Positions 1 to 56,697 of a stretch of 56,697 bases of DNA are shown here, piece after piece. Source of the DNA: a phage; the sequence record PZ513998.1; one strand, given 5' to 3'. The translations under genes and the position numbers were made by a program. Position 1 is the stretch's first letter. Every line of letters starts with the position of its first letter. A model generated the notes under the pieces. The model saw only the letters and a program-made list of their open reading frames with translations. It did no database searches and had not been told where the DNA came from.

Positions 1-180
1 ATGGTGATCAGGGAAAAGAAAAACTGGTATTATTGTTCATGCGGTAAGCCGTTTAGATCTGAGGCTCGCAGTAGTAACGGGCTAGTTTTGTTTCGATTAA
101 AGTGCGTATCCTGTGGGATATATTCACCGTGGCGCGGTTCAATTGGGCTATGTGTAGCGACGCTTGACAGCACCACGTAA
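1..180 (+). CDS. hypothetical small Cys-rich protein (zinc-ribbon-like CxCG ... CxxCG)
   Basis: 59-codon ATG..TAA ORF at window start, below the ORF-track size cutoff; translation MVIREKKNWYYCSCGKPF...KCVSCGIY; its first 7 nt ATGGTGA repeat the last 7 nt of ORF 181-546. Confidence 0.3.
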   Translation: MVIREKKNWYYCSCGKPFRSEARSSNGLVLFRLKCVSCGIYSPWRGSIGLCVATLDSTT

Positions 181-546
181 ATGGGTAACTCAGTAAATTG
201 TTTCAAATTTTATGAGGTTTGTAATGAGTTTCTAAATCTACCGGTAGTGGCTATCGGGAGGCCTAGCAACGATTTATCATTACCGGAATTTAATTACTCT
301 TATGGCGTGGTGTTCCATGTTAACAACAAGTTGCTTAGAGTCCTAACCGTCCGATATTCTTATGGACACCGGAGGGCATACGTTAGGATCGACGACGTAA
401 GAACGGATTACCCTAATGTCACTTATCCGGTTTACGAGCCGGTTCTTTTCTCGGGGGAGATCGCCGGCGAATGGATACGAGGCGCAAAAAATTTATACCG
501 GAGTTATAGGGACACGCTAACGAACGTAAGGGGGTCTGTATGGTGA
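181..546 (+). CDS. hypothetical protein
   Basis: 121-aa frame-1 ORF; no motif recognised; lies between the two halves of the portal gene if the window is circularised. Confidence 0.3.
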   Translation: MGNSVNCFKFYEVCNEFLNLPVVAIGRPSNDLSLPEFNYSYGVVFHVNNKLLRVLTVRYSYGHRRAYVRIDDVRTDYPNVTYPVYEPVLFSGEIAGEWIRGAKNLYRSYRDTLTNVRGSVW

Positions 547-1671
547 ATGAAATCAATCAAGGAACTTGTCGCGAGAAGTGCGAACAATCCCCCGGAGGTT
601 AAAGCACAAGGCGGTTATGAGGGTGCTCAGCGAAACTCGCGAGAAATGTATCGCTGGACGCCCGCAATAGTCTCTCCGGATCAGGAATTAGACGGCGGAC
701 AAAAAGAATTAGCCGATGCCCGGGTTCAAAACGTTATCCAGAATGACGGTTTTGCGTCCGGTGCCGTATCGATACATCGAGATAATATCGTCGGCTCTCA
801 ATACATGCTAAACGCTAAGCCGAATTTGTCCGCGCTAGGACTAAAAGGAGCTGACGCCGAAGCATGGGAGGAGGAGTTTCAAGACGTCGTAGAGTCGAAA
901 TTCAACGTGGCTGCGGACTCAACGGAAAACTGGTTTGATGTCACACGACGCAATTCTTTTACCGGCTTGGTTCGCCTCGCGGTGGCCCAAGCACTGATTT
1001 CCGGTGAAGTATTGGCATCGGCAGAATGGTCAAGAACCGCAGGTCGTCCTTTCAATACGGCCATTCAAATGATTAGCCCGCATCGACTGAGCAACCCGAA
1101 TAACTCGGCCAACACGAAAAACATTCGAGGCGGTGTTCATGTCGATGCGTTCGGACGACCAATCGGGTACTACATTCAAAACAGTTTCCCGGGAGAGAGT
1201 TTAATCAACGGTGAGAATCAAATGTGGCGATATGTTCCATCACGCAAACCGTGGGGACGTCGACAGGTTATTCACATCATGGAGCAAATTCTCCCGCACC
1301 AAAATCGCGGTATCTCAGACATGGTTGCAGCATTGAAGACCATTAGAATGACTAAGAACTTTCAGGAGATAACGCTACAAAACGCGGTAATCAATGCCTC
1401 GTATGCAGCCGCAATTGAGTCGGAGCTACCACCGGAAGCCGTTTACGCTCAGTTAGGTTTAGGGCAACGTCCGTTCGGCGAGATTATCCATGAGATGATG
1501 ACGAACGCAGCATCGTACTACGCGACTGCTAAAAACATGGAAATAGACGGCGCCAAGATCCCGCATTTAATGCCCGGCACTAAGTTGAACTTAAAACCGA
1601 TGGGGACTCCCGGCGGGATCGGCACGGACTTTGAGGAGTCGTTACTACGCCACATCGCAGCATCGTTATAA
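547..1671 (+). CDS. portal protein, lambda gpB family, N-terminal ~70% (ends at in-frame TAA)
   Basis: 374 aa colinear with lambda B from the N-terminus to the ...SLLRYIAAGL region (motifs MISPHRLSNPNN, NAVINASYAAAIESEL, AKIPHLMPG, SLLRHIAASL); homologs continue past this point; continuation found at 56182-56697. Confidence 0.8.
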   Translation: MKSIKELVARSANNPPEVKAQGGYEGAQRNSREMYRWTPAIVSPDQELDGGQKELADARVQNVIQNDGFASGAVSIHRDNIVGSQYMLNAKPNLSALGLKGADAEAWEEEFQDVVESKFNVAADSTENWFDVTRRNSFTGLVRLAVAQALISGEVLASAEWSRTAGRPFNTAIQMISPHRLSNPNNSANTKNIRGGVHVDAFGRPIGYYIQNSFPGESLINGENQMWRYVPSRKPWGRRQVIHIMEQILPHQNRGISDMVAALKTIRMTKNFQEITLQNAVINASYAAAIESELPPEAVYAQLGLGQRPFGEIIHEMMTNAASYYATAKNMEIDGAKIPHLMPGTKLNLKPMGTPGGIGTDFEESLLRHIAASL

Positions 1672-1947
1672 ATGAGCCGTCCATGCGATGAAACTCTCGC
1701 AGTATTAAAACAGCGATATGTTGAAGCGAGCCGAGCATATCACGATTTACAAATCGGGGTGTCTGGCCGAGTGTTTGTCGACCAAAATAGCGAACGTGTT
1801 GAATTCACCGCAGCTAACCGTCAGAGTCTACTTGCGTATCTTACCGGGCTACAACGTCAGATTTGTCAGTTAGCCCCGAACGACCCGATCTGTAATTGCG
1901 GTGTCGGCTTCGGGTCAATTTCCGCACCACTAGGGGCGTTATTCTAA
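1672..1947 (+). CDS. head-tail joining protein, lambda gpW-like
   Basis: 91 aa; central segment ...RAYHDLQIGVSGRVFVDQNSERVEFTAANRQSLLAYLTGLQ resembles gpW (…[39 protein letters not shown]); sits between large terminase and portal. Confidence 0.45.
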   Translation: MSRPCDETLAVLKQRYVEASRAYHDLQIGVSGRVFVDQNSERVEFTAANRQSLLAYLTGLQRQICQLAPNDPICNCGVGFGSISAPLGALF

Positions 1948-4014
1948 ATGGCTAAATACAAAAATCTCTTTGAGATCGCGGTCAAGATGTCGGATAACTT
2001 ACGACCCCCGGAAAGGTTGACCGTTTCTAATGCAGCATCTCAATATCGATATGTAAATTCTCCCGGGTCGTATGTAGGCCCGTGGTTGAATACAACAACG
2101 CCGTATATGGTCGAACCAATGGACGTATTAACTTCGCGCAATCACAGCAAGATGGCGTTTGTAGGCCCGGCACAGTCAGGTAAAACCGACGCGATTATCA
2201 TTAATGGCGTGTCATACTCAATCAAAGTCTCACCGATGGATACAATGGTATTCTGTCCGACAATGGCAGCCGCCCGAGACTTTTCTATGCGACGTATTGA
2301 TCGTCTTCACCGACACAGCCCGCTAATCGGCGAGCAATTGTTGAAAGGTAGAGACACCGACAATAAATTCGATAAACAATACATTACAGGTATGATGTTA
2401 ACTATCACATACCCTACCGTGACCGAATTGGCCGGACGACCGGTTCCAAGAATATTGATGACCGACTTTGACCGTATGGACGACGATATCGGCGGTGATG
2501 GTAATCCATTTGACTTGGCAACACAGCGTACAACAACCTTTGGTTCGTTTGCTATGACTATGGCCGAATCGTCCCCGTCGAGAGAGATTCTTGACCCGCA
2601 CTGGATAGCTAAGTCACCGCATGAGGCTCCGCCGTGTACCGGTATTATTGCGCTTTACAACCGTGGGGATAGACGACGTTGGCAATGGCCGTGTCCTCAC
2701 TGTGACGAATATTTCGAGGGTAAATTCGAGCATCTAACGTGGGACAACGGAAAACAGCTATCTAACCGAGAGAAAGCAGAAACCGTACAAATGGTATGCC
2801 CGGAATGTGGTTGTTTGATCCACCCCGACGAACGCTTTGAAATGAATTTATTCGGAGTGTGGGTTCCGGAGGGTTGTAAAGTTGATAAGAGCGGGAGACT
2901 TACGGGCAAAGCCCCTCATACCGACTTCATTTCTTACTGGCTCCGCGGTACGGCAGCCGCCTTTACGACATGGCAAAAACTGGTAAACATCTACCTCGAT
3001 GCCCTTGACGAATATCAACGGACGTACTCAGAAGAAGCCTTGAAGAAATTCTGGAATAACAACATGGGTGAGCCGTATCAGCCTAAGTCGTTAGAATCAG
3101 TCCGCGCACCGGAAGCACTGAAAAGCCGGTCATCAGATTACCCGCTAGGCATGGTTCCGAATGACGTTCGATTCCTCGTAGCAACGATAGACGTTCAATT
3201 GAATAGCTTCGTAGTACAGGTGTTCGGTATTTCCCCGGGTTCACCGTATGACACTCATGTTATAGACCGGTTCTTCATCAACAAGTCGGAGCGTAAGGAC
3301 GAAGACGGCGACGCAATGATCTTACAGCCGGCGACATACGAAGAAGACTGGAAACTTATCGAAAAACAGGTAATAGATAAAGAGTATCCGTTGTCAGACG
3401 GTAGCGGTAGAATGATGTCAATTAAGATGACCGGTTGTGACTCCGGGGGTAAATCTGGCGTAACCGGCATGGCATACGCGTTCTATCGATATTTGAAGAC
3501 AAAGAATAAACATGCTCGCTTCATCTTATTGAAAGGTGGCACACGAGTAACAGACCCGAGAACCCGTATTAGCTATCCGGACTCTAACCGGAAAAACGAT
3601 AAGAATGCAGCTAGAGGAGAAATCCCGGTATTATTCTTAAACTCGAACTTGTTGAAAGACGCATTAAACGGACGACTAGATTGTATTGAGCCTCACAAGG
3701 GCTATTATAATATGACTAGGGAATTACCGGACGAATTTTTCTCGGAGCTATGCGCCGAAACGAGAACCGCGAAAGGTTGGGAGAATTTAGCGCAAGCCCG
3801 AAACGAAGCATGGGACTTAAGCTACTACTGTTTGGGCCTTTGTACGTCTCCGGAGTTATTACGAGTAGAGTCGATAAATTGGGACAACCCCCCAACGTGG
3901 GCGGAGGAATGGGATAATAATACGATGGTCAGGGAACCCGAGGAAGAAAAACCATTCGCCTTTCAACCTCGACCGATGTTAGACTTTAGCCGTTTAGGTG
4001 AACTATTAGGATAG
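1948..4014 (+). CDS. terminase large subunit (GpA family)
   Basis: 688 aa; Walker A-like FVGPAQSGKTDA; Cys pairs CPHCDEYF...CPECGC typical of GpA zinc ribbon; adjacent to Nu1-like, gpW-like and portal genes; first 8 nt ATGGCTAA repeat 4592-4599. Confidence 0.8.
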   Translation: MAKYKNLFEIAVKMSDNLRPPERLTVSNAASQYRYVNSPGSYVGPWLNTTTPYMVEPMDVLTSRNHSKMAFVGPAQSGKTDAIIINGVSYSIKVSPMDTMVFCPTMAAARDFSMRRIDRLHRHSPLIGEQLLKGRDTDNKFDKQYITGMMLTITYPTVTELAGRPVPRILMTDFDRMDDDIGGDGNPFDLATQRTTTFGSFAMTMAESSPSREILDPHWIAKSPHEAPPCTGIIALYNRGDRRRWQWPCPHCDEYFEGKFEHLTWDNGKQLSNREKAETVQMVCPECGCLIHPDERFEMNLFGVWVPEGCKVDKSGRLTGKAPHTDFISYWLRGTAAAFTTWQKLVNIYLDALDEYQRTYSEEALKKFWNNNMGEPYQPKSLESVRAPEALKSRSSDYPLGMVPNDVRFLVATIDVQLNSFVVQVFGISPGSPYDTHVIDRFFINKSERKDEDGDAMILQPATYEEDWKLIEKQVIDKEYPLSDGSGRMMSIKMTGCDSGGKSGVTGMAYAFYRYLKTKNKHARFILLKGGTRVTDPRTRISYPDSNRKNDKNAARGEIPVLFLNSNLLKDALNGRLDCIEPHKGYYNMTRELPDEFFSELCAETRTAKGWENLAQARNEAWDLSYYCLGLCTSPELLRVESINWDNPPTWAEEWDNNTMVREPEEEKPFAFQPRPMLDFSRLGELLG

Positions 4015-4599
4015 ATGGCAAAGGCACCGGTAACAACAAGACGTCGTAGCAATCAGCTAGACCGTGAATCCGAGTCGATGATCTTCGACGGGGTTAACAT
4101 TACTCAGATCGCAAAGATATTTAACATGGAGCGTAGAGACGTTACGCCCAAGATCCGAGAAGTTCCTCCTTGCGGGGAACGAGGCGGGTATCCGATTTAC
4201 AAATTAAATGAAGTGGCGCCATACCTAGTAAAGCCCCTGTATGATGTCGAAACCTACATTAAGCGAATGCACCCCAACGAGCTTCCTAAAATGCTCTCTA
4301 AAGAGTTCTGGAACGGAATGAAAGCTAAGCAGGACTACGAGTTGAGAGAGGGTGAGCTATGGCCTACCGACCAAGTAGAAGCGCTAATGTCGGAGTCTTT
4401 TAAACACTTACGCATGTCATTACTCTTAGTAACGGACTCACTGGAACGTGAATCCACCCTCACCGATCATCAAAGAACCCGCATCACGGAAATGATAGAC
4501 GGCGCGCTAAATGAGATGGCGCAAACACTCGTTGAGGCATTCGGAGACCGGGCTAAGACGGAAGTCAAAGAGAGTACCGTAGGTGGCAAGAATGGCTAA
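4015..4599 (+). CDS. putative terminase small subunit (Nu1-like HTH protein)
   Basis: 194 aa; N-terminal HTH-like segment GVNITQIAKIFNMERRDVTPKI followed by GERGGYPIYKL, similar in layout to lambda Nu1; adjacent to large terminase. Confidence 0.45.
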   Translation: MAKAPVTTRRRSNQLDRESESMIFDGVNITQIAKIFNMERRDVTPKIREVPPCGERGGYPIYKLNEVAPYLVKPLYDVETYIKRMHPNELPKMLSKEFWNGMKAKQDYELREGELWPTDQVEALMSESFKHLRMSLLLVTDSLERESTLTDHQRTRITEMIDGALNEMAQTLVEAFGDRAKTEVKESTVGGKNG

Positions 4600-6123
4600 A
4601 TGCGAAAGAAATTCTCGAAACGTACGGTTGGGAAGACTAAAGTTAACCTACTTGAAGAAATCAGGAAAGGTAGAAAACTTGTTGAAAGACAACGGGAAGA
4701 CTTACACGAGTATCAAGTTGAAGCCCGACAACTGGCGCATGACATTCCATTCTGCGGATTATTCCTCGAAATGGGTATAGGCAAAACCGTAATAACCGGA
4801 ACGCTGATCGCCGACTTACTTGATAACTTTGAAGTAGATAGAGTTCTCATTATAGGCCCTCGTAGGGTGGCTAAAGTAACATGGCCGGACGAATTCATGG
4901 AGTGGGGTCATCTATGTGGGTATAAAGTAACGCCGGCAGTCGGAACACCCAAGGAAAGACTAGCGGTACTAAATAGCAATAGTCCTATCGTATCCATAAA
5001 CCGAGAGAATGTAAGCTGGCTAGTAAACTATTACAAAGGCAAGTGGCCGTTCGATATGGTGGTCATAGACGAGTCGAGTTCCTTTAAGTCTCACAAATCT
5101 AAGCGGTTTAAGGACTTAACTAAAGTCAGACCGAGGATAAAACGACTAATCGAGTTGACGGCCACCCCAAATGGCGAGGGATTTACTTCGTTCTTTTCTC
5201 AAATATATTTACTTGATTACGGTAAACGGTTCGGCCGTAGCTTCAATAAGTTTAGGGATAAATACTTCGAGTACAACCCGTATAACCACAGCATCAAGCC
5301 GAGAGAAGATACGGAGATGCGTATCTTAGAAAAGATAAAAGATATATGCGTAGTTATGCGAGCAGAAGACTATCTCGATCGAGTACCGTATGAGCCAAAG
5401 GTGATCCCGGTAAAACTCAATAAGAAGATCACCAAGGAGTATTTCGACTTCCAAAAGAATTTAGTCATGATGATACCCGAAGCGGAAAACGTCATAGTGG
5501 AAGCGCAATCGGCAGCGATACTCGCATTGAAACTGCTACAAATGTGCTCCGGCGTTATTTACAACACGTACTATGACGGGATAGATGAGAACGAGGAGCC
5601 GATAAGGAAGACCGACATCTATGATATCCACGAGGAGAAACTAGACGCGCTCGAAGTGTTTCTGGAAGAAGCAAAGGAAGCCGGAAAGAATGTTTTCCTT
5701 GGGTATCACTTTCGGTCATCACGAGAAAGAATATTAGCCCGATTCCCGGATATCGTCGAGATGGATAAAGACGGAAATAACATAAAACAATGGAACGCGG
5801 GGCGAATAAAAGTTTACATGGCACACCCTCAAAGTGCGGGGCACGGCTTGAATTTACAGCGGGGCGGACATACAATTCTTTTCTATGACATTCCGTATTC
5901 GTTCGAGAACTATGACCAATTTATCGGCCGGCTCGATAGGCAAGGTCAAAAGCACCGAGTAACAGTACACCACTTAGTTGCGGTCGGAACAAATGAAGAT
6001 GGCCGAACAGTCCAACTAGCCGACCGCCACGTTTATAACAATCTGAGACGTAAGGAAGAAAACCAAGATTGGGCCTTGAAGACCTTACGTGATCTCAGAA
6101 AAGCGATGAAAAAGGAAGTTTAG
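4600..6123 (+). CDS. SNF2-family helicase
   Basis: 507 aa; Walker A LEMGIGKTVITG, DExx box VVIDESSSF, C-terminal helicase motif QFIGRLDRQGQ; first 41 nt identical to 6371-6411. Confidence 0.8.
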   Translation: MRKKFSKRTVGKTKVNLLEEIRKGRKLVERQREDLHEYQVEARQLAHDIPFCGLFLEMGIGKTVITGTLIADLLDNFEVDRVLIIGPRRVAKVTWPDEFMEWGHLCGYKVTPAVGTPKERLAVLNSNSPIVSINRENVSWLVNYYKGKWPFDMVVIDESSSFKSHKSKRFKDLTKVRPRIKRLIELTATPNGEGFTSFFSQIYLLDYGKRFGRSFNKFRDKYFEYNPYNHSIKPREDTEMRILEKIKDICVVMRAEDYLDRVPYEPKVIPVKLNKKITKEYFDFQKNLVMMIPEAENVIVEAQSAAILALKLLQMCSGVIYNTYYDGIDENEEPIRKTDIYDIHEEKLDALEVFLEEAKEAGKNVFLGYHFRSSRERILARFPDIVEMDKDGNNIKQWNAGRIKVYMAHPQSAGHGLNLQRGGHTILFYDIPYSFENYDQFIGRLDRQGQKHRVTVHHLVAVGTNEDGRTVQLADRHVYNNLRRKEENQDWALKTLRDLRKAMKKEV

Positions 6124-6411
6124 ATGACTGTTAGAGAGAGCAAAGTCGAATCGGATATCCGAAAATACGCTTTGGCCCGAGGCTGGTGGGTTTCTAAATT
6201 TACTAGCCCCGGTAAACGAGGCGTACCAGACCGGATATTCATTAAAAACAGTTTTGTAGTTTTTATCGAAATCAAACGCCCCGGAGAGAAGCCGTCGAAG
6301 CAACAAGAATTACGCATGGCCGAGATGAAGCGCTACGGGGCTTTAGTATATTGGGTGGATAATTTAAACGATGCGAAAGAAATTCTCGAAACGTACGGTT
6401 GGGAAGACTAA
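6124..6411 (+). CDS. VRR-NUC domain nuclease
   Basis: 95 aa; PD-(D/E)xK-like core GVPDRIFIKNSFVVFIEIKRPGEKPSKQQ typical of VRR-NUC; classic partner of phage SNF2 helicases. Confidence 0.65.
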   Translation: MTVRESKVESDIRKYALARGWWVSKFTSPGKRGVPDRIFIKNSFVVFIEIKRPGEKPSKQQELRMAEMKRYGALVYWVDNLNDAKEILETYGWED

Positions 6412-8445
6412 GTGGAATCGAAAAGAACGTTAATTTTTGACTATGAAACATATAGCGAACTAGACATAAAGAAAGTAGGCGGTCACAAGTATGCACAGCA
6501 CCCGTCTACTGAAATTCTAATGGTAGCGTGGAAGTTTACTGACTCGGACGAAATCGGTTTTTGGGACAACACAATGCCCGAAGAAGATTTAGACGAGTTA
6601 AAGGGATATTTGCGCGACGATAACATCATAAAACGGGCATTCAACGCGCAGTTTGAGCGGTTGATCACTAAACACGTCCTAGGTATCGACACACCGTATG
6701 ACGTCTGGCGTTGTACGATGGTGGCTGCGTACCACCGAGGTTTTACCGGCGGGTTAGACATGGTTGGTAAGGCTCTAGGTTTTAAAGGGGATAAAGCAAA
6801 AGACGCAGCAGGTAAACGCCTAATTCAGAAATTTTGTAAACCAAGAAAGCCAACTAAACTCGACAAAAGTACAAGACACGATGCGGAATCACACCCGGAA
6901 GAATGGGAAGCATTCGGAGCCTATTGCCGACAAGACGTGATAGCCGAAGAAAATATCGACCGCCGTCTGAGTGACATCAAGTATGACATGATCGAATTTG
7001 AGTGGGAAGTTTACGCGTTAGACCAGAAAATTAATGACCGCGGAATAAATATCGATAACGACTTCATCGAAGCAGCAATAAAGATGGCCGAGACACGCAA
7101 GCCACAGATTATCGATGAAATGCGAGAACTTACAGGGCTAGCCAATCCCGGGTCTCAGAAACAACTATTAGCGTGGCTACAACAAGAGGGATACCCGTTC
7201 AACGACCTATTAGCTGACACCGTGAAAAAAGTCATAAACGAGTATCCGGACAATGGGATCACAGAAAAAGCGTGTCGAGTTCTTAAACTTCGTCGTAAAT
7301 CTAACAAAACCTCTCTAAAGAAATACAACAAAATGTTAGATATTGAAAACGACGACGGTAGGGTACGCGGAACAATTCAATGCTACGGGGGTTCTCGAAC
7401 CGGACGATTCGCCGGGCGGGGCTTACAAACTCACAACTTCGTAAGAACACCGAAGATACTTGAAGACGTCGAAGCTACGGAAATCGCTAAAAAGCTAGTT
7501 CTCGACCAAGACATGTGGGCTTTAAACGTTTTTGCTGGCGAACCCATGGATATGTTGCCGGGGCTACTACGATCCGCACTAATCCCAACGGTAGGTCGTC
7601 GCTTCGTTGTAGCGGACTTGTCATCAATTGAATCGGTAGTAATAGGTTGGCTTACCGGCTGTAAGTGGTTCCTAGATACCTTGCGGGCTAAAAAAGACTT
7701 ATATCGCGCATTCGCCTCAGCATGGCTAAAAATTCCTTACGAAGACACCCTCCCATTCCGAGGAAAGGCAAAACCGGCCACACTAGGTTGCGGATATCGA
7801 CTAGGCGGTGGCGAACTTATTGACGGTAAGAAAACCGGACTTTGGGGTTACGGTGAAAACATGGGAGTCATGCTAACACAAGAGGAGGCTCACGCTTCGG
7901 TAGACGCATTCCGAGAGTTGTGCCCTGAGATTGTTGACGGTTGGTATAAACTTGAAGATTGCGTAAAAACCACCATTAAGACGCACAAGACAACCCGATG
8001 GAGATCGTTAGTATTCGGGTTTAAAAAACCGTTCTTATGGATTAAGTTGCCATCGGGGCGGAAACTTTATTACTACCGCCCACGCTTAGTAACAAACACC
8101 TACAAGAACCGCAGAGGTGAGACGTACACTCGTCAAGAAATAATGTACGAGGGTAAAAAAGATCAAGGCGGTTGGGGTGTTCAAACCACGCACGGCGGGA
8201 AATTGATTGAGAATATCGTTCAAGCCATAGCAAGAGATGTCCTAGTAAACGGCATGTTTAATGCGGAAGAAATAGGTTTCGATATCGTATTCCACGTTCA
8301 CGATGAAATCATAACGGAAGTCGACGAAGATGACCTGTTAGGGCTAGACGACCTCATTGATTGTATGGCAGCACCGATATCGTGGGCGCCGGGACTACCA
8401 TTAGGAGCAGCAGGGTGGGAGGGGTATTTTTACCGTAAAGATTAA
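6412..8445 (+). CDS. DNA polymerase, family A-like with 3'-5' exonuclease domain
   Basis: 677 aa, GTG start; exo motif FDYETYSE, motif A-like VADLSSIESVV, motif B-like RGKAKPATLGCGYRLG, motif C HVHDEI. Confidence 0.75.
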   Translation: MESKRTLIFDYETYSELDIKKVGGHKYAQHPSTEILMVAWKFTDSDEIGFWDNTMPEEDLDELKGYLRDDNIIKRAFNAQFERLITKHVLGIDTPYDVWRCTMVAAYHRGFTGGLDMVGKALGFKGDKAKDAAGKRLIQKFCKPRKPTKLDKSTRHDAESHPEEWEAFGAYCRQDVIAEENIDRRLSDIKYDMIEFEWEVYALDQKINDRGINIDNDFIEAAIKMAETRKPQIIDEMRELTGLANPGSQKQLLAWLQQEGYPFNDLLADTVKKVINEYPDNGITEKACRVLKLRRKSNKTSLKKYNKMLDIENDDGRVRGTIQCYGGSRTGRFAGRGLQTHNFVRTPKILEDVEATEIAKKLVLDQDMWALNVFAGEPMDMLPGLLRSALIPTVGRRFVVADLSSIESVVIGWLTGCKWFLDTLRAKKDLYRAFASAWLKIPYEDTLPFRGKAKPATLGCGYRLGGGELIDGKKTGLWGYGENMGVMLTQEEAHASVDAFRELCPEIVDGWYKLEDCVKTTIKTHKTTRWRSLVFGFKKPFLWIKLPSGRKLYYYRPRLVTNTYKNRRGETYTRQEIMYEGKKDQGGWGVQTTHGGKLIENIVQAIARDVLVNGMFNAEEIGFDIVFHVHDEIITEVDEDDLLGLDDLIDCMAAPISWAPGLPLGAAGWEGYFYRKD

Positions 8446-9051
8446 ATGGCAAAACTTAAACCAGTAAAACGTATTAAACATGAAGGTAAAACAGTAGCGG
8501 TAATCTATGAAGACGGCCACGTCCGAATTGATAATGTTCGCTTGTCATACCCACACTTAGCAACACCACAAGAGGGTGATGACGGCAGTAAAAAGTTCGG
8601 TGCTACATTCTTATTAGACAAGGACATTCATTCTGAAACAGCCGAAGTCTTAAAAGATTTAGCAGCTAAAACAGCGAAAAACGCGAAAGTGAAAGTCCCG
8701 TCATCGAAGTATTTCATCAAAGATGGTGACGAAGAATTTTCGGACAAACCTGAATGTGAAAATATGTTTGTTATCTCCGCCCGGGAAAAGAAACGTCCTG
8801 TTTGTCGAGATGCTGACAAAGAAGAAATCGACGTAGACGATATTGAAGAAATCCTATACGGCGGTTGCTATGTTAGTGCCTTGATTGGTCTTTGGGTTCA
8901 AGATAACAAATACGGAAAACGAGTTAACGCTAACCTCCGTTCAATCAAATTCATCAAAGACGGCGAGCCGTTCGGTGCTGAAAGAATCGATGATTCCGAA
9001 GCGTGGGACGACGAAGACGAATGGGGTGAAGGCGAAGAAGACGACATCTAA
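8446..9051 (+). CDS. DUF2815-like phage ssDNA-binding protein
   Basis: 201 aa; acidic C-terminal tail DDSEAWDDEDEWGEGEEDDI as in SSBs; conserved position between DUF2800-like nuclease and DNA polymerase. Confidence 0.5.
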   Translation: MAKLKPVKRIKHEGKTVAVIYEDGHVRIDNVRLSYPHLATPQEGDDGSKKFGATFLLDKDIHSETAEVLKDLAAKTAKNAKVKVPSSKYFIKDGDEEFSDKPECENMFVISAREKKRPVCRDADKEEIDVDDIEEILYGGCYVSALIGLWVQDNKYGKRVNANLRSIKFIKDGEPFGAERIDDSEAWDDEDEWGEGEEDDI

Positions 9052-10380
9052 ATGGATAAATCATTTTTACATCGACTTATGTTGGCTTGCGAAAATGACG
9101 GACATTCGATATTCGCACCGTCATACTCCGCAACTTGGATGAATTGCCCCGGGTCGCTAGTACCTAGCATCTTGGAGGAAGATTCAGCCGGGTTCGAGGC
9201 AGCCGAGGGAACCATCGCCCACGCTATTGCTGAGGAGTGGTTGAGAACCGGGAACAGGCCCGACCACTTATTAAATACAACTCAGGTACACGAGGAGAAC
9301 GGAAATCGATTCGAGATCCCGGTCGACCACGAAATGTTCGAGTATCTTCAAGAATACATTAAGATGTGCGGTGAGAACAAAGGCGATCAGTTTGTAGAAA
9401 CTAAAGTGTGGTTCACGGACTTAATGCCGATCGCCAACCCGGACGCAGACGAGCTAAACGGGGAAGATGAAAGCCCGATTAAGTTTATCCGACAAGGCGG
9501 TACGTGTGACCACGCTGTATGCCAACCCGGTAAATTAATCATAACCGATTTGAAATACGGGCAATTCATTCACGTTTCTACTGACGACAATACTCAATTG
9601 AAATTGTACGCATACGGATTCTTTAGAGAGTTCGACGAAAAGTATCACTTCGAAGATATAGAGATCCGTATCTGTCAACCGAGAAAATATAATTTTGGCC
9701 GGTTTAAGATGACCCGTTCGGAGATTATCGCTTTCGGGGAGCGAGTGAAAAAAGCCACCAAAGAAGCGTGGAGTATGGACGCTCTACGTTACCCAAGTGA
9801 AAAGGCTTGCGAGTGGTGTAAGATATCCTACAAATGCCCGGCGAACTTCGCAAGAATACTAGATCTCAAGAACGGCAGATACAGCCCTAACCCATTCGGA
9901 TACTCGGCGGACGACATGGCAAGTATAAAAGATCTCCTCAGAGAAGAACTAAATTTACAATTAAAAGAGACTTCCCTATTGACATGGGAGGAAATTTCGT
10001 TAATATACCCACATCGCAAGCCGATAGAGAAGTGGTTCAAAGATGTTGAGAAAGCAGCATCAAAACGGATCATGGAGGGTAAGCCGATAAAAGGCTTGAA
10101 GATGGTAGCGAAAAGAGGGACTCGGCAGTTTGTTGAGGAGTCCACGGCCACGGAAGAACTAGAATTTGTAGGGCTAGACGAAAGTCAAATAAACCCCACA
10201 AAGATGATATCCCCGAAACAGGCCGAAACACTATTGAAAAAGCTAGGATATGATAAAGATGTTGTTAAAAGCATCTTGTCTGACCTGACTTTTACAAAAC
10301 CGGGCGAACCGACGTTAGTTACAGAGGACGACCCACGAAAAGACCTAAACGAGAAGTATCAAGAAGTTTGGGACGATTAA
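9052..10380 (+). CDS. DUF2800-like PD-(D/E)xK (Cas4-like) nuclease
   Basis: 442 aa; N-terminal MDKSFLHRLMLACENDGHSIFAPSYSATWMNCPGS; Cys cluster CEWCKISYKCP; conserved partner of DUF2815 and PolA. Confidence 0.55.
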   Translation: MDKSFLHRLMLACENDGHSIFAPSYSATWMNCPGSLVPSILEEDSAGFEAAEGTIAHAIAEEWLRTGNRPDHLLNTTQVHEENGNRFEIPVDHEMFEYLQEYIKMCGENKGDQFVETKVWFTDLMPIANPDADELNGEDESPIKFIRQGGTCDHAVCQPGKLIITDLKYGQFIHVSTDDNTQLKLYAYGFFREFDEKYHFEDIEIRICQPRKYNFGRFKMTRSEIIAFGERVKKATKEAWSMDALRYPSEKACEWCKISYKCPANFARILDLKNGRYSPNPFGYSADDMASIKDLLREELNLQLKETSLLTWEEISLIYPHRKPIEKWFKDVEKAASKRIMEGKPIKGLKMVAKRGTRQFVEESTATEELEFVGLDESQINPTKMISPKQAETLLKKLGYDKDVVKSILSDLTFTKPGEPTLVTEDDPRKDLNEKYQEVWDD

Positions 10381-10863
10381 ATGTCACAACAAAACGGCGT
10401 TTTAGAAATGTTATTAGCTAGCTTCGCAACTTTAAACGAGAATATCGAGAAGTTAAACGGAAACATCGAAGCGTTGGTAGCTAACGGCGTAGCATCGGGT
10501 AAAACTGAAACTAATGCCGACACTAAAGCTGAAAGCAAATCTGAAACTAAAGCAGAAAGCAAGTCAGAGACTAAGACAGAAGAAAAGAAAGCGGATAAAA
10601 AATCTAATTCTAAAAAATCTGAAAAACAAGCTGACAAGCCGGCGGATAAACCTAAATACACTAAATCAGACATCACCGAAGCGCTTCGCAAAGTTCGAGC
10701 TGATATCGACAAAGAAGAAGCGGTTCGCATCATCAATGAAGTCGGCGGTGTTGAGAAGATGGGCCAGATCCCAGAAGATAAGTATGAAGCTGTTTTCCAA
10801 GCGTGTGAAGCATCTCTTAACGGTGAATCAGATGACGACTCAGGCGATGACGACGATATGTAA
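10381..10863 (+). CDS. hypothetical acidic protein with KSETK repeats
   Basis: 160 aa; repeats ESKSETKAESKSETKTEEKK and Asp-rich C-terminus SDDDSGDDDDM; function unknown. Confidence 0.35.
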   Translation: MSQQNGVLEMLLASFATLNENIEKLNGNIEALVANGVASGKTETNADTKAESKSETKAESKSETKTEEKKADKKSNSKKSEKQADKPADKPKYTKSDITEALRKVRADIDKEEAVRIINEVGGVEKMGQIPEDKYEAVFQACEASLNGESDDDSGDDDDM

Positions 10864-11199
10864 TTGACTGGATTGTCTCGTTTCGACACGGCCTATAATA
10901 CTCGTTATGAAATCCCTGTCAACACCTTTTTGACGAAATTTTTATATCGGGTATCCACCTCAATGTTAGGCCACCCGAAAAGTTTCATTGCCGGTAAGAT
11001 GTTTATCGCCTTTTAGGTGATACTTTTATCCTCTCAACTGATATCGCTCTCAGGTGGCCGTAGATTTAAGTCCGTTCACGTATTGACTTTCTGTTTTAAG
11101 TGGAATATCCCGCGCGTTGACTTATCTATAATTCTTGCGGTATTATCTGCGTCTACCCTCGGGTTAGATTTATCACAACTAAGGAGCAAGTATTTATGA

Positions 11200-11484
11200 A
11201 TGAAAGAGAGTAATTTCCCATCGTGGGCGAAGAACAATAAAACGGGTCGACTTAAATTCATGATCCGGCATTTAGCCAGTTTCGCTTCGGAGGAGGGCCA
11301 CCTAGTTTTCCTGTGCCGAGACGCTAAACTGTCGGTTCGTGGTGTCTCACAAGCAATCGACCGAGGAGAATTCACCTTTCAAATGGCGGATAAACTCGTT
11401 AAGGCTGCAAGCGTTGCTGGAAACCCGGACGTCACAGTTATGAACCTATTAAAACCTATGGAATCATTTAAAGAGGACAAATAA
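11200..11484 (+). CDS. hypothetical protein
   Basis: 94-aa ORF; AAGGAG 9-13 nt upstream (11182-11187). Confidence 0.3.
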   Translation: MKESNFPSWAKNNKTGRLKFMIRHLASFASEEGHLVFLCRDAKLSVRGVSQAIDRGEFTFQMADKLVKAASVAGNPDVTVMNLLKPMESFKEDK

Positions 11485-14160: not shown

Positions 14161-14294
14161 ATGTTGTACAAAAATCACCCAACACACATGATCGAATTAC
14201 CTTTATATAGCTTATATATATATTTTTCTATTTTTCCTTTCCTATCTATTTTTTCTTTCTTCTGGAATTTCTATTTTATTATCTATTACTGTGT

Positions 14295-14350
14295 TTGCTG
14301 TGTCAGAAAGAAAGTAATATAGTTGCTGTGTCAGAAAGAAAGTAATATAG
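14295..14350. repeat. tandem direct repeat, 2 x 28 bp (TTGCTGTGTCAGAAAGAAAGTAATATAG)
   Basis: two perfect adjacent copies at 14295-14322 and 14323-14350, inside an AT-rich stretch. Confidence 0.9.
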
Positions 14351-15090
14351 TAAAAACAATAACTTACCTTGGAACACCTATTGGAACATCAGCCGGCACA
14401 GCAATTTCCTGTGACACACCACCAGCCATGGTAATACCTAAAACGGCGCATAACTATTTGATATTATTACGGAATTACCTAAAATACCGGTCATTACGGT
14501 AAATGATGTCCCCTATTGCTAAAGCCTGTGCGTCGCTCTCCGTGCTTTCTAGAGAAGAATCACTTTTAAATCGAAAAAGGTACTTGGACGAGTTGTCCGG
14601 TTGGGCGGGGGTGCGCAGAGCCGTCTTCCAGAAATTTGTCCGGGATCTGCCATAGATGTTTGGGTGTTCGGGTGGGCGGTGTTGTGGGTTAGATGTGCTT
14701 CAAATTGTAAGCGTGTGCGATTGTGCGAGGCGATCGCGGTGTTAGTTGTCGGTCGTATCCGTTGAGCGGGGGTATAGCGCCTCGGGTGAACACGCCGATC
14801 GGGAACGTCGTTTTTACGTTTTGTGCGGGTGTTCGGGTGTGCGGTTGTACCGCATGACGTTTTTACAAATATAAATGCGGTCGCGCCAGCGCCTACCCAC
14901 CCAACACCACCACCCCAAGCCCTCACTCTCCCCCATTCCCCCCCACCCTATGGAAAATTGCCGTAAAGCCATGTGTTGCGTCCTCAGCGTGTTTTGCCCG
15001 CTAGGTAAGGCCGATGTATTACCTACGATGAGTTATGCCCGTGTGGTTCGATTGAGGGCGGAAGACGGCGCTTTGTTTGTTCCGACTTAA

Positions 15091-15330
15091 ATGAGCATTC
15101 TCAAGATGCTACTCTCCGGTGTGTACAACGTGGGCGCCGTGTGTTTCTTCGGCCTAATTTCGATTTATATTCTCTCGTTCTTTTTCCGCGCCCTACAAAA
15201 CCACGGTTTCGACGGTCTACACCGCACTACGTTAGTTCTCGAATCAATCGGCGCTATCATGATGGTCGTCTTCATGGTTTGCGTTGCGATCTTGGTGTTC
15301 GCCGGAGGCGTCGCCCTAACAATCCGGTAG
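15091..15330 (+). CDS. hypothetical small membrane protein (2 predicted TM helices)
   Basis: 79 aa; hydrophobic stretches GAVCFFGLISIYILSFFF and IGAIMMVVFMVCVAILVFAGGVAL. Confidence 0.3.
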   Translation: MSILKMLLSGVYNVGAVCFFGLISIYILSFFFRALQNHGFDGLHRTTLVLESIGAIMMVVFMVCVAILVFAGGVALTIR

Positions 15331-15909
15331 ATGAGTTGTAACTGTTTCGATCGTATTCAAAAATCGATGGCTGATCGGGTGGCCGGTAAGTTGCCGAACG
15401 GCGCAATAATACACTCGGCGGAGTGGAAAACAGAAGTGTTAGCTATTGAAAATAAAAAGTTGAAAACCCGATATTTTCTAGACTTCACCATAGAGTATCA
15501 AGAGCGTAGACCGGACGGGACGCTCTACTCGACGGTAACAAAATCTGATTTTCCTGTGTTTATGAATTATTGCCCGTTCTGTGGCGTAAAGTTCGAGGAG
15601 GACGAACAAACTCAGGATCAGGAAGACCGTTTTAAATTCCCTGCGCTAGTCTACGTCAAAAATGGAAAAGACCCCATCGCACACACGGGGGCAACGTTAC
15701 AACGAAGTGGGACAGAACACCCTCGCGGAATGTTTGCGGAGTACGTGAACGTGCGAACCAATGAGCGGATTTACTTTTCTGAGTCGTTGATGTCCTCCCG
15801 CCTAGACGGTGGCGATTACGTCGAGATCCCCGACGACTGGGAACAACTCAGCGACTATTGCCAGAAAGACATAATCGCAGAACGAAAAGCACGAGGCGGT
15901 CGAAAATGA
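15331..15909 (+). CDS. hypothetical protein with Cys pairs (CNCF ... CPFCG)
   Basis: 192-aa ORF; possible zinc ribbon; no family recognised. Confidence 0.3.
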   Translation: MSCNCFDRIQKSMADRVAGKLPNGAIIHSAEWKTEVLAIENKKLKTRYFLDFTIEYQERRPDGTLYSTVTKSDFPVFMNYCPFCGVKFEEDEQTQDQEDRFKFPALVYVKNGKDPIAHTGATLQRSGTEHPRGMFAEYVNVRTNERIYFSESLMSSRLDGGDYVEIPDDWEQLSDYCQKDIIAERKARGGRK

Positions 15910-19218: not shown

Positions 19219-19285
19219 GTGAGTAATATAATACTACCGCTTTCAGGTGTCAACAAGTTTTTTATAAATATTTTAGGCAATAAAA

Positions 19286-19327: not shown

Positions 19328-19404
19328 CATGTTTTCAAATCAAGGCTATATTAACGGATATTTTTCAACTTGTAAACAATAAATTTCTCAGCGGAAAAGA
19401 AAAA

Positions 19405-19422: not shown

Positions 19423-19425
19423 TAA

Positions 19426-21233: not shown

Positions 21234-21262
21234 TCTCAGCACACAAACAAACTGATTGTACT

Positions 21263-49710: not shown

Positions 49711-49729
49711 ATGGTACAGGCCGAAGTAG
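49711..49729 (+). repeat. 19-bp exact repeat ATGGTACAGGCCGAAGTAG (second copy at 49947-49965)
   Basis: start of frame-1 ORF 49711-49869 is identical to the last 19 nt of frame-1 ORF 49870-49965. Confidence 0.9.
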
Positions 49730-49965
49730 ACATTGTTATCAAGCGAGTTAATAATCAAATAGCAACGGAAGCAATATTAATGCAACAATGTATCGCCTCC
49801 GCCGTATGGGGGAAAGAGGGCGCTAAGATTTTCAACAAGACGATAAAGGGGCTACAAGGTGGCAAATAGATGCGGAGAAAATCAGGGAGGGGGTTAGCCT
49901 CCTCCTGTCCCACGGTCATACGTTCGCACGACACTACCCGATCGGCATGGTACAGGCCGAAGTAG

Positions 49966-50418
49966 ATGTCATTATCCGCATTCGAACCAACGAAAAAAAG
50001 CGTAACTATCAATGATTCTATTTCCATCGAAGTTCGAGGCTTATCACTAAACGATATCTCTCGATTAATCCAGTTACACGCCCAAGATTTAGACGGCGTA
50101 TTCGACTTATATTCACAAGGAGTTGGGGCCGGGAAAGAATTAGATAGTTTAGTATTCGCTAACTACTTGCTCACCCTGATATCCTCCGCACCGGGGCTAA
50201 TTAGTAGCATTATCGCGGTTTCTGCGGACGAACCTACCATGGCCGATAAAGCCTCCCTCCTACCGATAACGGCGCAATACGATTTAATGATGGCCGTATT
50301 TGAGTTAACTTTCTCGGACATTGCTACGCTAAAAAAGATCATGGCGAACGTAATGGAGAAAGTGGGAGAAGCGAACGGGAAAACAGTTCCGGCCAAGAAA
50401 GCCAAGAAAAAGGGTTAA
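49966..50418 (+). CDS. putative tail assembly chaperone (gpG-position)
   Basis: 150-aa acidic protein with Lys-rich C-terminus next to the tape-measure region; K-rich run AAGAAAAAGGG near its 3' end. Confidence 0.4.
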   Translation: MSLSAFEPTKKSVTINDSISIEVRGLSLNDISRLIQLHAQDLDGVFDLYSQGVGAGKELDSLVFANYLLTLISSAPGLISSIIAVSADEPTMADKASLLPITAQYDLMMAVFELTFSDIATLKKIMANVMEKVGEANGKTVPAKKAKKKG

Positions 50419-51606
50419 ATGGCACAACCATGTACAAGCAGCAACGACCAGAATTACGTCGTAGGGCGTGGTCGACTATTCTTCGACAAGTTCGTCGACG
50501 GTTGTAACAACTCCGAGCATGGCGAAATGTATTTCGGTAATACCCCGGAGTTATCACTATCTTCTGACACAGAAACGTTAGACCATTATTCGTCTGATTA
50601 TGGTATGCGTGAAAAAGACCTAACCGTGATGCTAGAGCATTCTCGTTCTGGTTCATTCACAACCGACCATATCTCCGCGGACAACCTAGCGTTGTTCTTC
50701 CTAGGGGACAAAACGCATGTTACTCAGACTCAGGTGACAGGCAACAAAGAAGTATTCGAAAACGTGGCATTAGGTCGTCACTACCAACTCGGCACAACGG
50801 ATATCCTACCGATGGGCGTTCGTAACATCGAGAATCTGTTAGTTTACGTGGCGGACGGTGATACAACCATCAACCTAGGCGATGGCGATGTGTCAACTAT
50901 CGACGGTGTAACTAAAGTAAATTTTGCCGGCCAGATCGACTACGACCTAGAGTTAGGACGTATCTATATCGAACCTACCGCTACTGAAATTAAAAACGGT
51001 CAGCAGTTAGTAGTCCAGTATGACATCGAGGCGCAGGCTCGCGAAATCATCATTGCCCGTAACCGCATGATCTACGGCTCACTGCGATTCTTGTCAGCTA
51101 ACCCGGTAGGTAGCGCGAAAGATTTCTACTGGCCCAAAGTCATGTTACAACCTGACGGAGACTATGCACTTAAAGGTGACGACTGGCAACAAATTGGGTT
51201 TACCTTTAGCGTTCTTCGCAAAAACCGCAAAGTGGAGCAGGTTTACATCGAGTCAGCGATGGCAAGAGCATCTACGCCCCCAAAGCCTGATCCGGAGCCG
51301 GAATACCGTCTAACTCTTAGCGTTACTCCGACCTCCGGTACTGAGGGTGATACTTTAGTAGCTAAGGTAAAAGCTACGAAAGACGGCGCTCCGAGAAAAA
51401 CAAAAGTGGTCTTTGCCTTTAGCTCCGACGAGGTGGAACTGGCCGATAGTCACCCTGACGGTGTAGAGACAGACGGGGTTACGGGAGAGGCCACTGTGAA
51501 TCTTACGGTAGGCCCCGTGTCCGGTTCCGCGACAAAAGTTACGATAACAGTAACCGATAGCGACGGAGGAAGTGCGACGGAGGAAGTTACCGTCAACCCA
51601 AAGTAA
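50419..51606 (+). CDS. major tail protein with C-terminal Ig-like domain
   Basis: 395 aa; C-terminal ~100 aa Thr/Val-rich beta-strand pattern (TLSVTPTSGTEGDTLVAKVKATKDG ... TKVTITVTDSDGGSATEEVTVNPK) typical of Ig-like decoration on major tail proteins. Confidence 0.5.
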   Translation: MAQPCTSSNDQNYVVGRGRLFFDKFVDGCNNSEHGEMYFGNTPELSLSSDTETLDHYSSDYGMREKDLTVMLEHSRSGSFTTDHISADNLALFFLGDKTHVTQTQVTGNKEVFENVALGRHYQLGTTDILPMGVRNIENLLVYVADGDTTINLGDGDVSTIDGVTKVNFAGQIDYDLELGRIYIEPTATEIKNGQQLVVQYDIEAQAREIIIARNRMIYGSLRFLSANPVGSAKDFYWPKVMLQPDGDYALKGDDWQQIGFTFSVLRKNRKVEQVYIESAMARASTPPKPDPEPEYRLTLSVTPTSGTEGDTLVAKVKATKDGAPRKTKVVFAFSSDEVELADSHPDGVETDGVTGEATVNLTVGPVSGSATKVTITVTDSDGGSATEEVTVNPK

Positions 51607-52119
51607 ATGGCAAGTAAAAAATTAGAAATACTAAAAGCACTAACGTCTCTACTAGAAACAGTATCATCGGACGGTAACGAAAATATACGGCCGTATAGTT
51701 TGGCCGGAAGTGTCTATCGCGGTAGAACCGTTTTTGGAGATAACGACCCCGTACCTTTGGTGAGTATACTTGAAGCGAAAGGGGCTAATTACGCTGATTA
51801 CGCTGATGACTTCAAGATCATAAACAAAACCGGCTGGAACCTATTAATACAAGGGTGGGTCGACCCGATAGACCCTAAACAAGAAACCGACCCGGTATAC
51901 GAGCTAGTACAAGACGTAATATGTGCGTTACAAAAGATTAATGCGGTACGGCCGGAGACCGGTAAACCGCTATACCCGGAGTATTATCGACTAGGTGGGC
52001 GGATTTTTGAATTAACTTTAGGTGACGAGGTTGTCAGACCAAGCGAAGTTGAGGTATCATCTAAGGCGTTTTTCTACCTCCCGATAGTAATCGGCATCAC
52101 TAATCAAGCAAGAGGGTAA
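51607..52119 (+). CDS. putative tail terminator / head-tail joining protein
   Basis: 170-aa ORF; assignment by position between capsid and major tail genes. Confidence 0.3.
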   Translation: MASKKLEILKALTSLLETVSSDGNENIRPYSLAGSVYRGRTVFGDNDPVPLVSILEAKGANYADYADDFKIINKTGWNLLIQGWVDPIDPKQETDPVYELVQDVICALQKINAVRPETGKPLYPEYYRLGGRIFELTLGDEVVRPSEVEVSSKAFFYLPIVIGITNQARG

Positions 52120-54507: not shown

Positions 54508-54903
54508 ATGTTAGCAGGTTCTCGCGACCTTAACGCATGGGAACCAACTCAGATTTTCGCCGGCGAGTCACCGATCCATACGGACAACGGCGTGGCGTCA
54601 AGCGATATCGATATGTACCAAGTGGTATATCGTAAAGAAGACGGCACTATCGCAGCATTTGACGACACGGTTTATCCGGGTACGGGTTCCGGCGGTGACG
54701 AGGGTGAGGGGACTGCAACGGCGATATTACCAGTCGGGATCTCGGCACAAGCAACGAAAAGCGGTCAGACAGTACAGTTCTACACCGGCGGTACGTTTAA
54801 TATCGATGCGATCACATGGCCGAAAGCCATTGATGACCTAGTGAAAGCCAAATCGCTTTTCGAGTTAGGTCGCTCAACAATCATTATCAAAAAACTGTAT
54901 TAA
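54508..54903 (+). CDS. head decoration protein (lambda gpD-like)
   Basis: 131 aa; LNAWEP ... ILPVGISAQATKSGQTVQFYTGGTFNIDAITWPKA parallels gpD LVAWDG ... [31 protein letters not shown]. Confidence 0.6.
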   Translation: MLAGSRDLNAWEPTQIFAGESPIHTDNGVASSDIDMYQVVYRKEDGTIAAFDDTVYPGTGSGGDEGEGTATAILPVGISAQATKSGQTVQFYTGGTFNIDAITWPKAIDDLVKAKSLFELGRSTIIIKKLY

Positions 54904-56181
54904 ATGACGCAAGGCACTTATCAAGCTGCTGCCGTACAAGCGGTACAAGCTATTAATCTACGCCCGGCGTTTCTGGACGAACGTTCAGTCGGTTCTATGG
55001 GGAGTAACTTACAGTTGCTAGCTAACGTAGAGGCCGACATGACTGACGAAACTTGGTCAACAATGCTAAACAACGTGTGTATGACGTATGGGGTGTCTAA
55101 CAGCGCACCAACTAACAAACCATACGGATTCTCTAACGGAACCGCTTTCATTCCGGTACACGGCTCTCTAATTAACCGCTTCGGCGGTTCTTGGGGATTC
55201 GTTACAGGATATAGCTATATTCGTAGAGCACACGCAATGGCCTTGAATGATCCGGACGTCGAGAGAATCGTCTATGACGTTAATTCGGGTGGAGGCGAGG
55301 CAGCCGGTTGTATGGAACTATCGGACGAGATTTTCAGTCGTCGCGGTGAAAAACCTACACTGGCCGTCATCAACTCAAGTTGCTATTCTGCTGCTTACGC
55401 GATCGCAAGTGCGTGTGACGCGATAAGTATCACGCCCTCGGGTGGCGCGGGTTCAATTGGGGCGTTGATTATTCACGCTGATATGTCTAAAATGTTGTCT
55501 GACGTAGGAATTAAAGTATCTGTGATACGCGCCGGCGACAGAAAGGCAGAAACCAACCCTTTCGAGGAACTTAGCGATCAAGCGAGAGCAGAGCTACAAT
55601 CAGGCGTCAACGCTTGTAGAAAAACGTTTGTAGCAACCGTAGCAAGAAATCGCGGTTTGTCGGAAAAGCTAGTATTCGACACCGAAGCGAAAACATACGA
55701 CGCGAATGATGCTAAAGACTTAGGTCTAGTTGACCGCGTTGAATCGCCAGAAATGGCATTACACAACTTCATTAACGGAACAGAGAGCGAAACTGATATG
55801 GCCGTAAAAAACACAAACGCGGAGCAACCGACAATCAATGCGTCCGAAGAACAAGCTAAAGGTGCGAAAGCAGAACAAGCGCGTATCAAGGGCATTCTTG
55901 GTTGTGATGAAGCAAAAGGGCGCGAATCGTTAGCACAACACATCGCGTTCAACACCTCAATGAGCGAAGAAGATGCTAAGGCAATGCTTAACGCTTCTCC
56001 GGTTGAGAAAGCGGAAGAACCAAAGCAAGAAGAAAAGCCGAACGCTTTTAAGAAAGCAATGGACGAAGGCGAACAGCCGGGCATCAAAGCCGAGCCACAG
56101 GACACGGATAAGCCCTTAGCAACGGACGAGAATAACTCGTTATTAGACGACCTTTCAGGTCTTGGCTATTTCGGTAACTAA
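54904..56181 (+). CDS. S49-family head maturation protease / scaffold (lambda gpC-like)
   Basis: 425 aa; SppA/S49-like core (VNSGGGEAAGCMELSDEI, INSSCYSAAYAIASACD, GSIGAL); C-terminal RIKGILGCDEAKGRE matches gpC RIMGILNCEEAHGRE; ATGA at 54904-54907 repeats the last 4 nt of the window. Confidence 0.8.
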   Translation: MTQGTYQAAAVQAVQAINLRPAFLDERSVGSMGSNLQLLANVEADMTDETWSTMLNNVCMTYGVSNSAPTNKPYGFSNGTAFIPVHGSLINRFGGSWGFVTGYSYIRRAHAMALNDPDVERIVYDVNSGGGEAAGCMELSDEIFSRRGEKPTLAVINSSCYSAAYAIASACDAISITPSGGAGSIGALIIHADMSKMLSDVGIKVSVIRAGDRKAETNPFEELSDQARAELQSGVNACRKTFVATVARNRGLSEKLVFDTEAKTYDANDAKDLGLVDRVESPEMALHNFINGTESETDMAVKNTNAEQPTINASEEQAKGAKAEQARIKGILGCDEAKGRESLAQHIAFNTSMSEEDAKAMLNASPVEKAEEPKQEEKPNAFKKAMDEGEQPGIKAEPQDTDKPLATDENNSLLDDLSGLGYFGN

Positions 56182-56697
56182 AACCTTTCATACGAACAGT
56201 TTAGCCGAGACTACACGAAGACTAACTATTCTTCCGCGAGAGCCTCAATGGGGGAAACATGGAAATTCATGCAGTCTCGCAAAAAGATCATTGCTGATGC
56301 TTTCGCTACAAACATTTATGCGTTGTGGTTAGAGGAGATGATAAACAAAAACGAAATCCCGTTGCCACGAGGAAAAACGAGCGACTGGTTTTACGAACCG
56401 TTAGTGAAAGACTGTTTAATTCGTTGCGACTGGATAGGTGCAGCCCGCGGTCAAATCGACGAGAAGAAAGAGACCGAAGCAGCTATCATGAGAATTAACA
56501 GTGGTCTGAGCACTCGTGAGAAAGAAATCGCTCGACTCGGCGAAGACTGGAGAGAGATTTTTAGGCAGTTAGAACGAGAAAAACGAATAAAAGATAAATA
56601 CGGGCTTGTTTTCTCCGGAGATGTGAGTAATATATCCGCTAACGAGAAAACAAACTCGGAAGATGACGAAGAAACTAACAGTGGGGATTCGGAATGA
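56182..56697 (+). CDS. portal protein, lambda gpB family, C-terminal fragment lacking a start codon
   Basis: open in frame 1 directly after the protease stop; first ATG only at 56248; translation NLSYEQFSRDYTKTNYSSARAS...CDWIGAARGQIDEKKETEAAIMRINSGLSTREKE is colinear with gpB residues following ...IAAGL (GVSYEQLSRNY...CDWIGSGRMAIDGLKEVQEAVMLIEAGLSTYEKE); continues exactly where ORF 547-1671 stops. Confidence 0.75.
   Translation, partial: NLSYEQFSRDYTKTNYSSARASMGETWKFMQSRKKIIADAFATNIYALWLEEMINKNEIPLPRGKTSDWFYEPLVKDCLIRCDWIGAARGQIDEKKETEAAIMRINSGLSTREKEIARLGEDWREIFRQLEREKRIKDKYGLVFSGDVSNISANEKTNSEDDEETNSGDSE

Follow-up and report, generated by a model that had tools for sequence, protein, structure and literature searches.

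An 85-tile, single-frame phage sequence: almost certainly an in-silico concatenation of coding sequences predicted in Escherichia phage E21

The phage sequence of record PZ513998.1, which was analysed over its full length of 56,697 nt and is called the window here, carries all of its genes on one strand and in one reading frame. The window is almost certainly an in-silico concatenation of 85 coding sequences (CDSs) predicted in the genome of Escherichia phage E21, and its single frame is a data-processing artefact. This reading rests on the exact mapping of its gene segments onto all six frames of E21, which supported the proposal of a first-pass annotation that the sequence is a concatenation of sense-strand CDS sequences.

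Architecture of the window and its origin in phage E21

The length of the window was divisible by 3, with ATG at the start and TGA at the end. Frame +1 contained 85 stop codons, compared with 1250 in frame +2, 1408 in frame +3, and 989, 556 and 1148 in the three minus-strand frames. Cutting frame +1 at its stops gave 85 gapless tiles spanning 1-56697, every one of them in + frame 1, as the first-pass annotation had claimed for all genes; its count of about 70 substantial open reading frames (ORFs) has to be replaced by 85 tiles, 53 of which had at least 100 codons, and its shortest tiles of 30-35 codons by a measured minimum of 90 nt (29 codons and a stop, at 14656-14745 and 21385-21474). The first codons of the tiles were ATG (72), GTG (7), TTG (5) and AAC (1). 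At 83 of the 84 internal junctions the stop was followed by ATG, GTG or TTG, the sole exception being the AAC at 56182, so that the earlier statement that every stop is followed by such a codon held everywhere but there. Since start-type codons made up 5.3% of the frame-1 codons, the chance of this pattern was about 1e-106, and the pattern is far beyond chance. The positions quoted earlier as ORF starts (181, 547, 1672, 1948, 4015, 54904 and 56182) were all exact tile starts. The quoted start codons were likewise exact (10864 TTG, 11017 GTG, 14161 ATG, 14323 TTG, 19219 GTG, 19321 TTG, 21256 TTG and 21385 GTG), and 14503, 29932, 30034, 49711 and 49870 were tile starts with the stated codon too. 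No base lay between a stop and the next start at any junction, and intergenic regulatory DNA as in a native locus (ribosome-binding sites, promoters, terminators) was lacking.

When the two ends of the window were compared with phage records by megablast, E21 was returned at 100% identity, broken into 25 and 21 pieces. The parent was identified as Escherichia phage E21 (MN604053.1, identical in sequence to NC_052983.1), a circular genome of 58,536 bp assigned to Lavrentievavirus, Casjensviridae. Each tile was looked up as an exact string in the rebuilt E21 record. By this lookup 84 of the 85 tiles were exact substrings of MN604053.1, and the remaining one (547-1671) was exact apart from an extra TAA. 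Each stop-to-stop segment thus corresponded to a start-to-stop substring of this one record, with two partial tiles at the record edges, and identity to this Lavrentievavirus exemplar was 100% across all tiles, while the next-closest relatives of E21, which are Proteus phages, were 96-99% identical. The tiles came from both parent strands (57 from the minus strand and 28 from the plus strand) and occupied all six frames of the record (20/17/20 on the minus strand and 12/8/8 on the plus strand), yet they shared one strand and one frame in the window. The layout of the parent genome is therefore ordinary, and the single frame was produced by joining. With this result, the check that the first-pass annotation had named, finding the parent and comparing its coordinates and strands with the tile order, has been carried out, and only one of the 84 junctions was contiguous in the parent.

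The base accounting agreed with this picture. The 56,697 nt of the window consisted of 56,417 unique parent bases, 277 duplicated bases and three added bases (TAA, 1669-1671). The duplicated bases stemmed from 29 overlaps between genes on the same strand, none longer than 41 nt, and no opposite-strand overlap occurred. The DNA of 53 intergenic gaps, 2,119 parent bases in all, was absent, the largest gap lying at record 13751-14077. Of the junctions, 53 joined minus-strand pairs by ascending record coordinate, opposite to transcription order, 12 had a spacer removed, 12 had an overlap duplicated, six were strand switches, and a single one was native (window 11016/11017, record 10611/10612). Hence 83 of the 84 junctions were not contiguous in the parent, with spacers deleted and overlaps duplicated, and the earlier conclusion that the window is not a contiguous native locus was confirmed. 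Compared with the E21 genome, every window base but three was identical at 100% and all 64 annotated genes were included, whereas the intergenic bases were lost, the overlap bases doubled and TAA added, the 57 minus-strand genes were flipped into an order opposite to their transcription, and two tiles were displaced.

A native contiguous locus with all genes in one frame and on one strand, such as a translationally coupled super-operon or a polyprotein-like arrangement, would account for the single-frame pattern itself and for nothing else. The same sequences are present at 100% identity in E21, where they use both strands and six frames, with spacers and overlaps of the ordinary kind, and native relatives have an ordinary layout too. 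In the window, by contrast, the minus-strand operons are inverted and the portal gene is split into tiles near opposite ends. Two junction-spanning 36-mers searched in IMG/VR were absent, while an internal 36-mer used as a control matched a 58,536-bp E21 contig, and contiguity of the window was found in no independent genome or contig, the best phage records aligning in 21-25 pieces. A parent contig containing the window contiguously, which the first-pass annotation had set as a finding against its proposal, therefore did not appear, the tested junctions occurring in no phage record or IMG/VR contig. The tile-to-genome mapping refuted the native locus, whose probability we regard as practically nil.

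The other frames of the window gave no sign of genes. The most open of them was one antisense frame with the 556 stops given above (about 1000-1150 in the other two antisense frames), and its openness would be the usual by-product of codon bias. The longest antisense ORF (378 aa, window 22767-23900, minus strand) lay opposite the RdgC tile and crossed an artificial junction. A Pfam search of the ten longest ORFs outside frame 1 of the window (nine antisense and one in + frame 2) found no family, and all 64 deposited genes were in frame-1 tiles; well-supported genes outside + frame 1 of the window, the second finding that would have spoken against the earlier proposal, were thus not seen. Searches for tRNAs and Rfam families in both the window and the parent found none.

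The gene set behind the tiles

Two simpler sources of the 85 tiles were considered, the first being a concatenation of the CDS features deposited for E21 in GenBank or RefSeq. All 64 deposited CDSs had a stop in common with a tile, and 48 were identical to tiles, as this source would predict. Against it, 16 tiles had the same stop but another start (-63 to +207 nt) and 21 tiles had no deposited counterpart, and the deposited portal fragment covers 58021-58470, whereas the tile reaches the record end. This source is refuted for both records examined and is very improbable overall. The second was a mechanical extraction of maximal ORFs that uses no gene model and takes the first start after each stop. 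In 59 of the 85 tiles the start was indeed the most upstream ATG, GTG or TTG of the ORF. The other 26 began downstream of an available start, the tiles formed one nearly non-overlapping path through the genome (its few overlaps being those counted above), and long antisense ORFs of up to 378 aa were left out. Downstream starts, a nearly non-overlapping path and omission of antisense ORFs are the behaviour of a scoring gene caller, and a mechanical extraction has accordingly a very low probability.

The tiles are thus de novo gene-caller ORFs rather than deposited CDS features. We infer that the caller was dense and PHANOTATE-like, because ORFs down to 90 nt, a minimum length in use among common gene callers, fill the intergenic DNA. 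The annotations of the close relatives OR699184, OR699185 and OR699186 contained tiny ORFs of 29, 31, 33, 34, 42, 50, 52 and 60 aa at corresponding positions. They also shared with the tiles the 131-aa decorator start and, ahead of the tape measure gene, ORFs of 31 and 52 aa. The resemblance of the tiles to dense PHANOTATE-style calls such as those of these records, with ORFs of 29-60 aa in corresponding intergenic regions, is an indirect one. The sparser Logan gene calls on assembled run contigs lacked those tiny ORFs.

The coding character of the tiles was assessed by a log-odds score for codon usage, with the long annotated tiles as training set. None of the 64 annotated tiles scored below 0.11 bit per codon. 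Among the 21 extra tiles, only the N-terminal portal fragment (0.27) and a 52-aa tile (0.42) had gene-like scores, three were intermediate (0.06-0.08), and 16 were at or below 0.02 bit per codon. The 20 small ones, that is, all of the extra tiles but the portal fragment, were also scanned against PHROG, and 19 had no match or a weak one; the matches were those of the 52-aa tile (the C-terminus of a likely chaperone frameshift product) and a weak TciB-like match of a 33-aa tile. By their codon usage, some 16 tiles out of the 85 probably represent non-coding DNA. The first-pass annotation had noticed that the frame runs on through apparently non-coding stretches, which was borne out, and these stretches are probably non-coding DNA that was tiled by the caller.

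The split portal gene and the assembly of the sequence

The portal gene was cut exactly at the linearisation point of the record (position 1/58536) and distributed over tile 3 and tile 85. In blastn, record 1-1122 was found at 100% identity in tile 3, after which the genome continues with AAC and not with TAA. The joined portal tiles gave a protein of 545 aa with a Pfam match to Phage_portal_2 (PF05136, lambda-family) at residues 31-407 (E = 1.8e-84), which spanned the joint at residue 374/375, and close relatives had a single uninterrupted portal gene of 547 aa directly after gpW. In the window, the two pieces were a 374-aa part with an artificial stop and a 171-aa part without a start, 54.5 kb apart; tile 85 starts with AAC because the 3' part is cut at the record end. 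An exact lookup of the partial 171-aa tile in a public gene-call collection returned no record. The GenBank and RefSeq annotations of E21 include only a 149-aa C-terminal portal fragment (58021-58470) and no gene at 1-1122. The cut at the record origin shows that the database record was the source of the window, which depends on the arbitrary linearisation of that record.

The broken portal also bears on the alternative that the window was physically built and then sequenced, as a refactored phage genome or an ORFeome concatemer. A file and a molecule are indistinguishable by sequence alone, and the duplication of 277 nt of overlaps is also typical of genome refactoring: in the refactored T7.1 and phiX174, overlapping genes were reportedly separated by doubling their common bases, while regulatory elements, gene order and intact genes were kept. 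The window resembles these in the duplicated overlaps and differs from them in having no regulatory DNA and a broken portal gene. It has no ribosome-binding sites, promoters or terminators between genes, its operon order is inverted for 57 minus-strand genes, and with the portal broken at the record origin and capped by TAA, so that not all essential genes were intact and expressible, it could not make virions. The 16 tiles with non-coding-like usage (0.02 bit per codon or less) and the 19 of 20 extra small tiles with at most a weak PHROG match would not have been chosen by a designer, and there was no vector, linker or barcode, all bases except TAA being parental. A functional construct would not break an essential gene at the GenBank origin, while a script run on the linear record would. 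A built and sequenced construct is therefore highly improbable, and a really synthesized "all-ORF" concatemer of E21, for example for a study of translational reinitiation or as an ORFeome library insert, has an equally slight chance of being the source.

The in-silico concatenation almost certainly proceeded as follows. A gene caller was run on the linear record MN604053.1 / NC_052983.1 and gave 85 predicted CDSs, and each CDS was written in sense orientation and joined head to tail, essentially by left coordinate; TAA would have been appended by the script to the CDS without a stop. Because each CDS consists of whole codons from start to stop, the joined genes all fall in frame 1 with a start directly after each stop, and head-to-tail joining loses the intergenic DNA, doubles the overlap bases and flips the minus-strand genes. 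Concatenated-CDS pseudo-sequences, in which the nucleotide FASTA of a caller is joined, serve codon-usage statistics or codon-level sequence models. The window has in common with such sequences, as known from common practice, the one frame, the start after each stop, the sense orientation, the partial genes at record edges and the 90-nt minimum ORF, but it differs from them in the two tiles out of order and the stop added to a partial CDS, and we know of no tool that gives either as its standard output.

Several points weigh against the concatenation as described. The coordinate order was imperfect, with tiles 1-2 (record 19875-20413) preceding tile 3 (record 1-1122); the 3'-truncated tile received a stop, yet no start was supplied to the 5'-truncated one; and the exact gene caller is inferred. 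The sort keys tried for the placement of tiles 1-2 (left end, 5' end and string order) did not fit, and a stop-spacer pad such as TTAATTAATTAA, considered as the source of the TAA, would by reasoning add 12 nt in frame and not 3. The displaced tiles and the appended stop leave the conclusion that the window is a concatenation unaffected. Among the top-ranked literature matches for phage E21 or MN604053 there was no relevant paper.

Other features of the parent genome and meaning of the artefact

The blocks of tiles are listed in Table 1 in window order.

Table 1. Tile blocks of the window and their positions in the E21 record (MN604053.1)
Feature	Window	Record	Record strand	Remarks
Whole window	1-56697 (+)			85 predicted E21 CDSs in sense orientation, abutting stop-to-start in one frame
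Tiles 1-2	1-546	19875-20054 and 20048-20413	-	Displaced from between window 19425 and 19426
Tile 3, portal 5' part	547-1671	1-1122	- (reverse complement)	TAA added at 1669-1671
9 tiles	1672-10863	1128-10438	-	Ascending record coordinate, opposite of transcription order; head-tail adaptor, TerL, TerS, helicase, VRR-NUC, DNA polymerase, ssDNA-binding protein, exonuclease, hypothetical
Junction-spanning stretch GATGACGACGATATGTAATTGACTGGATTGTCTCGT	10846-10881
6 tiles	10864-14502	10459-14391	+	Primase gene; sole native junction
12 tiles	14503-19218	14465-19498	-	First four tiles (14503-15090) small, their codon usage resembling that of non-coding DNA
2 tiny tiles (33 and 34 aa)	19219-19425	19547-19761	+	Probably non-coding DNA
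6 tiles	19426-21255	20406-22351	-
20 tiles	21256-30147	22366-31515	+	RdgC, Dam-type methyltransferase; spacers removed, overlaps duplicated
26 tiles	30148-56181	31575-58024	-	Lysis, tail, tape measure, capsid, protease; reverse of transcription order
Tile 85, portal 3' part	56182-56697	58536-58021	-	Cut at record end; starts AAC, no start codon

The tail assembly chaperone region (window 49711-50418; record 51318-52021, minus strand) contained the slippery sequence A_AAA_AAG at record 51656-51650, in canonical phase, inside the 150-aa chaperone gene, and the -1 frame was open from there down to record 51318. A modelled G-T fusion of 234 aa matched phrog_11703 from end to end (1-232 of 232, E = 9e-64). 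These features of the sequence suggest that a programmed -1 frameshift is likely in the E21 tail assembly chaperone. In this reading the C-terminus of the G-T frameshift product corresponds to the 52-aa tile (49711-49869). The 31-aa tile (49870-49965) is probably a spurious ORF. The frameshift is not annotated in the E21 records. Neither its product nor the N-terminal two thirds of the portal gene is included in the deposited annotation.

Some of the small ORFs were considered individually. The 121-aa ORF at window 181-546 (record 20048-20413, minus strand) is not in the E21 annotation, had an intermediate codon score of 0.075 and no PHROG match, and overlaps the upstream 189-aa gene by 8 nt; an identical protein has been called in at least four related genomes, and the ORF is probably a real unannotated gene. 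The 125-aa ORF at window 19996-20373 (record 21081-21458, minus strand) is also not in the E21 annotation and had a low codon score of 0.017 and no PHROG match, and relatives carry a called gene of 125 or 133 aa at this site. The 33-aa tile at 29932-30033 (record 31288-31389, plus strand), which gave the weak TciB-like match (phrog_1470, E = 4e-5), shares 38 nt with the end of the gene before it.

A region of about 1.4 kb that lies between gp12 and the primase gene (window 14161-15090; record 14078-15086) held six small ORFs on both strands, all with negative coding scores. This region contained 8-nt-periodic ACCCGAAC/ACCCAAAC-like repeats at record 14683-14780 and a 21-nt repeat with copies at record 13807 and 14787, 980 nt apart, and the parent gap 13751-14077 beside these small ORFs was left out of the window. 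The region may have a non-coding role, in regulation or replication.

The gene at window 26845-27585 (record 28174-28914) is labelled "DNA methyltransferase" in GenBank and "phosphoadenosine phosphosulfate reductase" in RefSeq, and the homologous 246-aa gene of relatives had a Pfam match to PF05869 (Dam). Besides many Proteus mirabilis phages, the records 96-99% identical to E21 include some named as Salmonella and Pseudomonas phages, and host labels are inconsistent across the species-level cluster that contains "Escherichia phage E21".

The significance of the single frame is one of quality control only, because it is a construction artefact of the window and not biology. The earlier warning that spacing-based inference is unreliable here was correct. 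Inferences from the window on distance, strand, order, intergenic motifs, promoters and terminators, and likewise on ribosome-binding sites, overlaps and GC skew, are invalid and need to be redone on MN604053.1 by means of the tile-to-record map, while findings within a single tile, such as protein content, are still valid.

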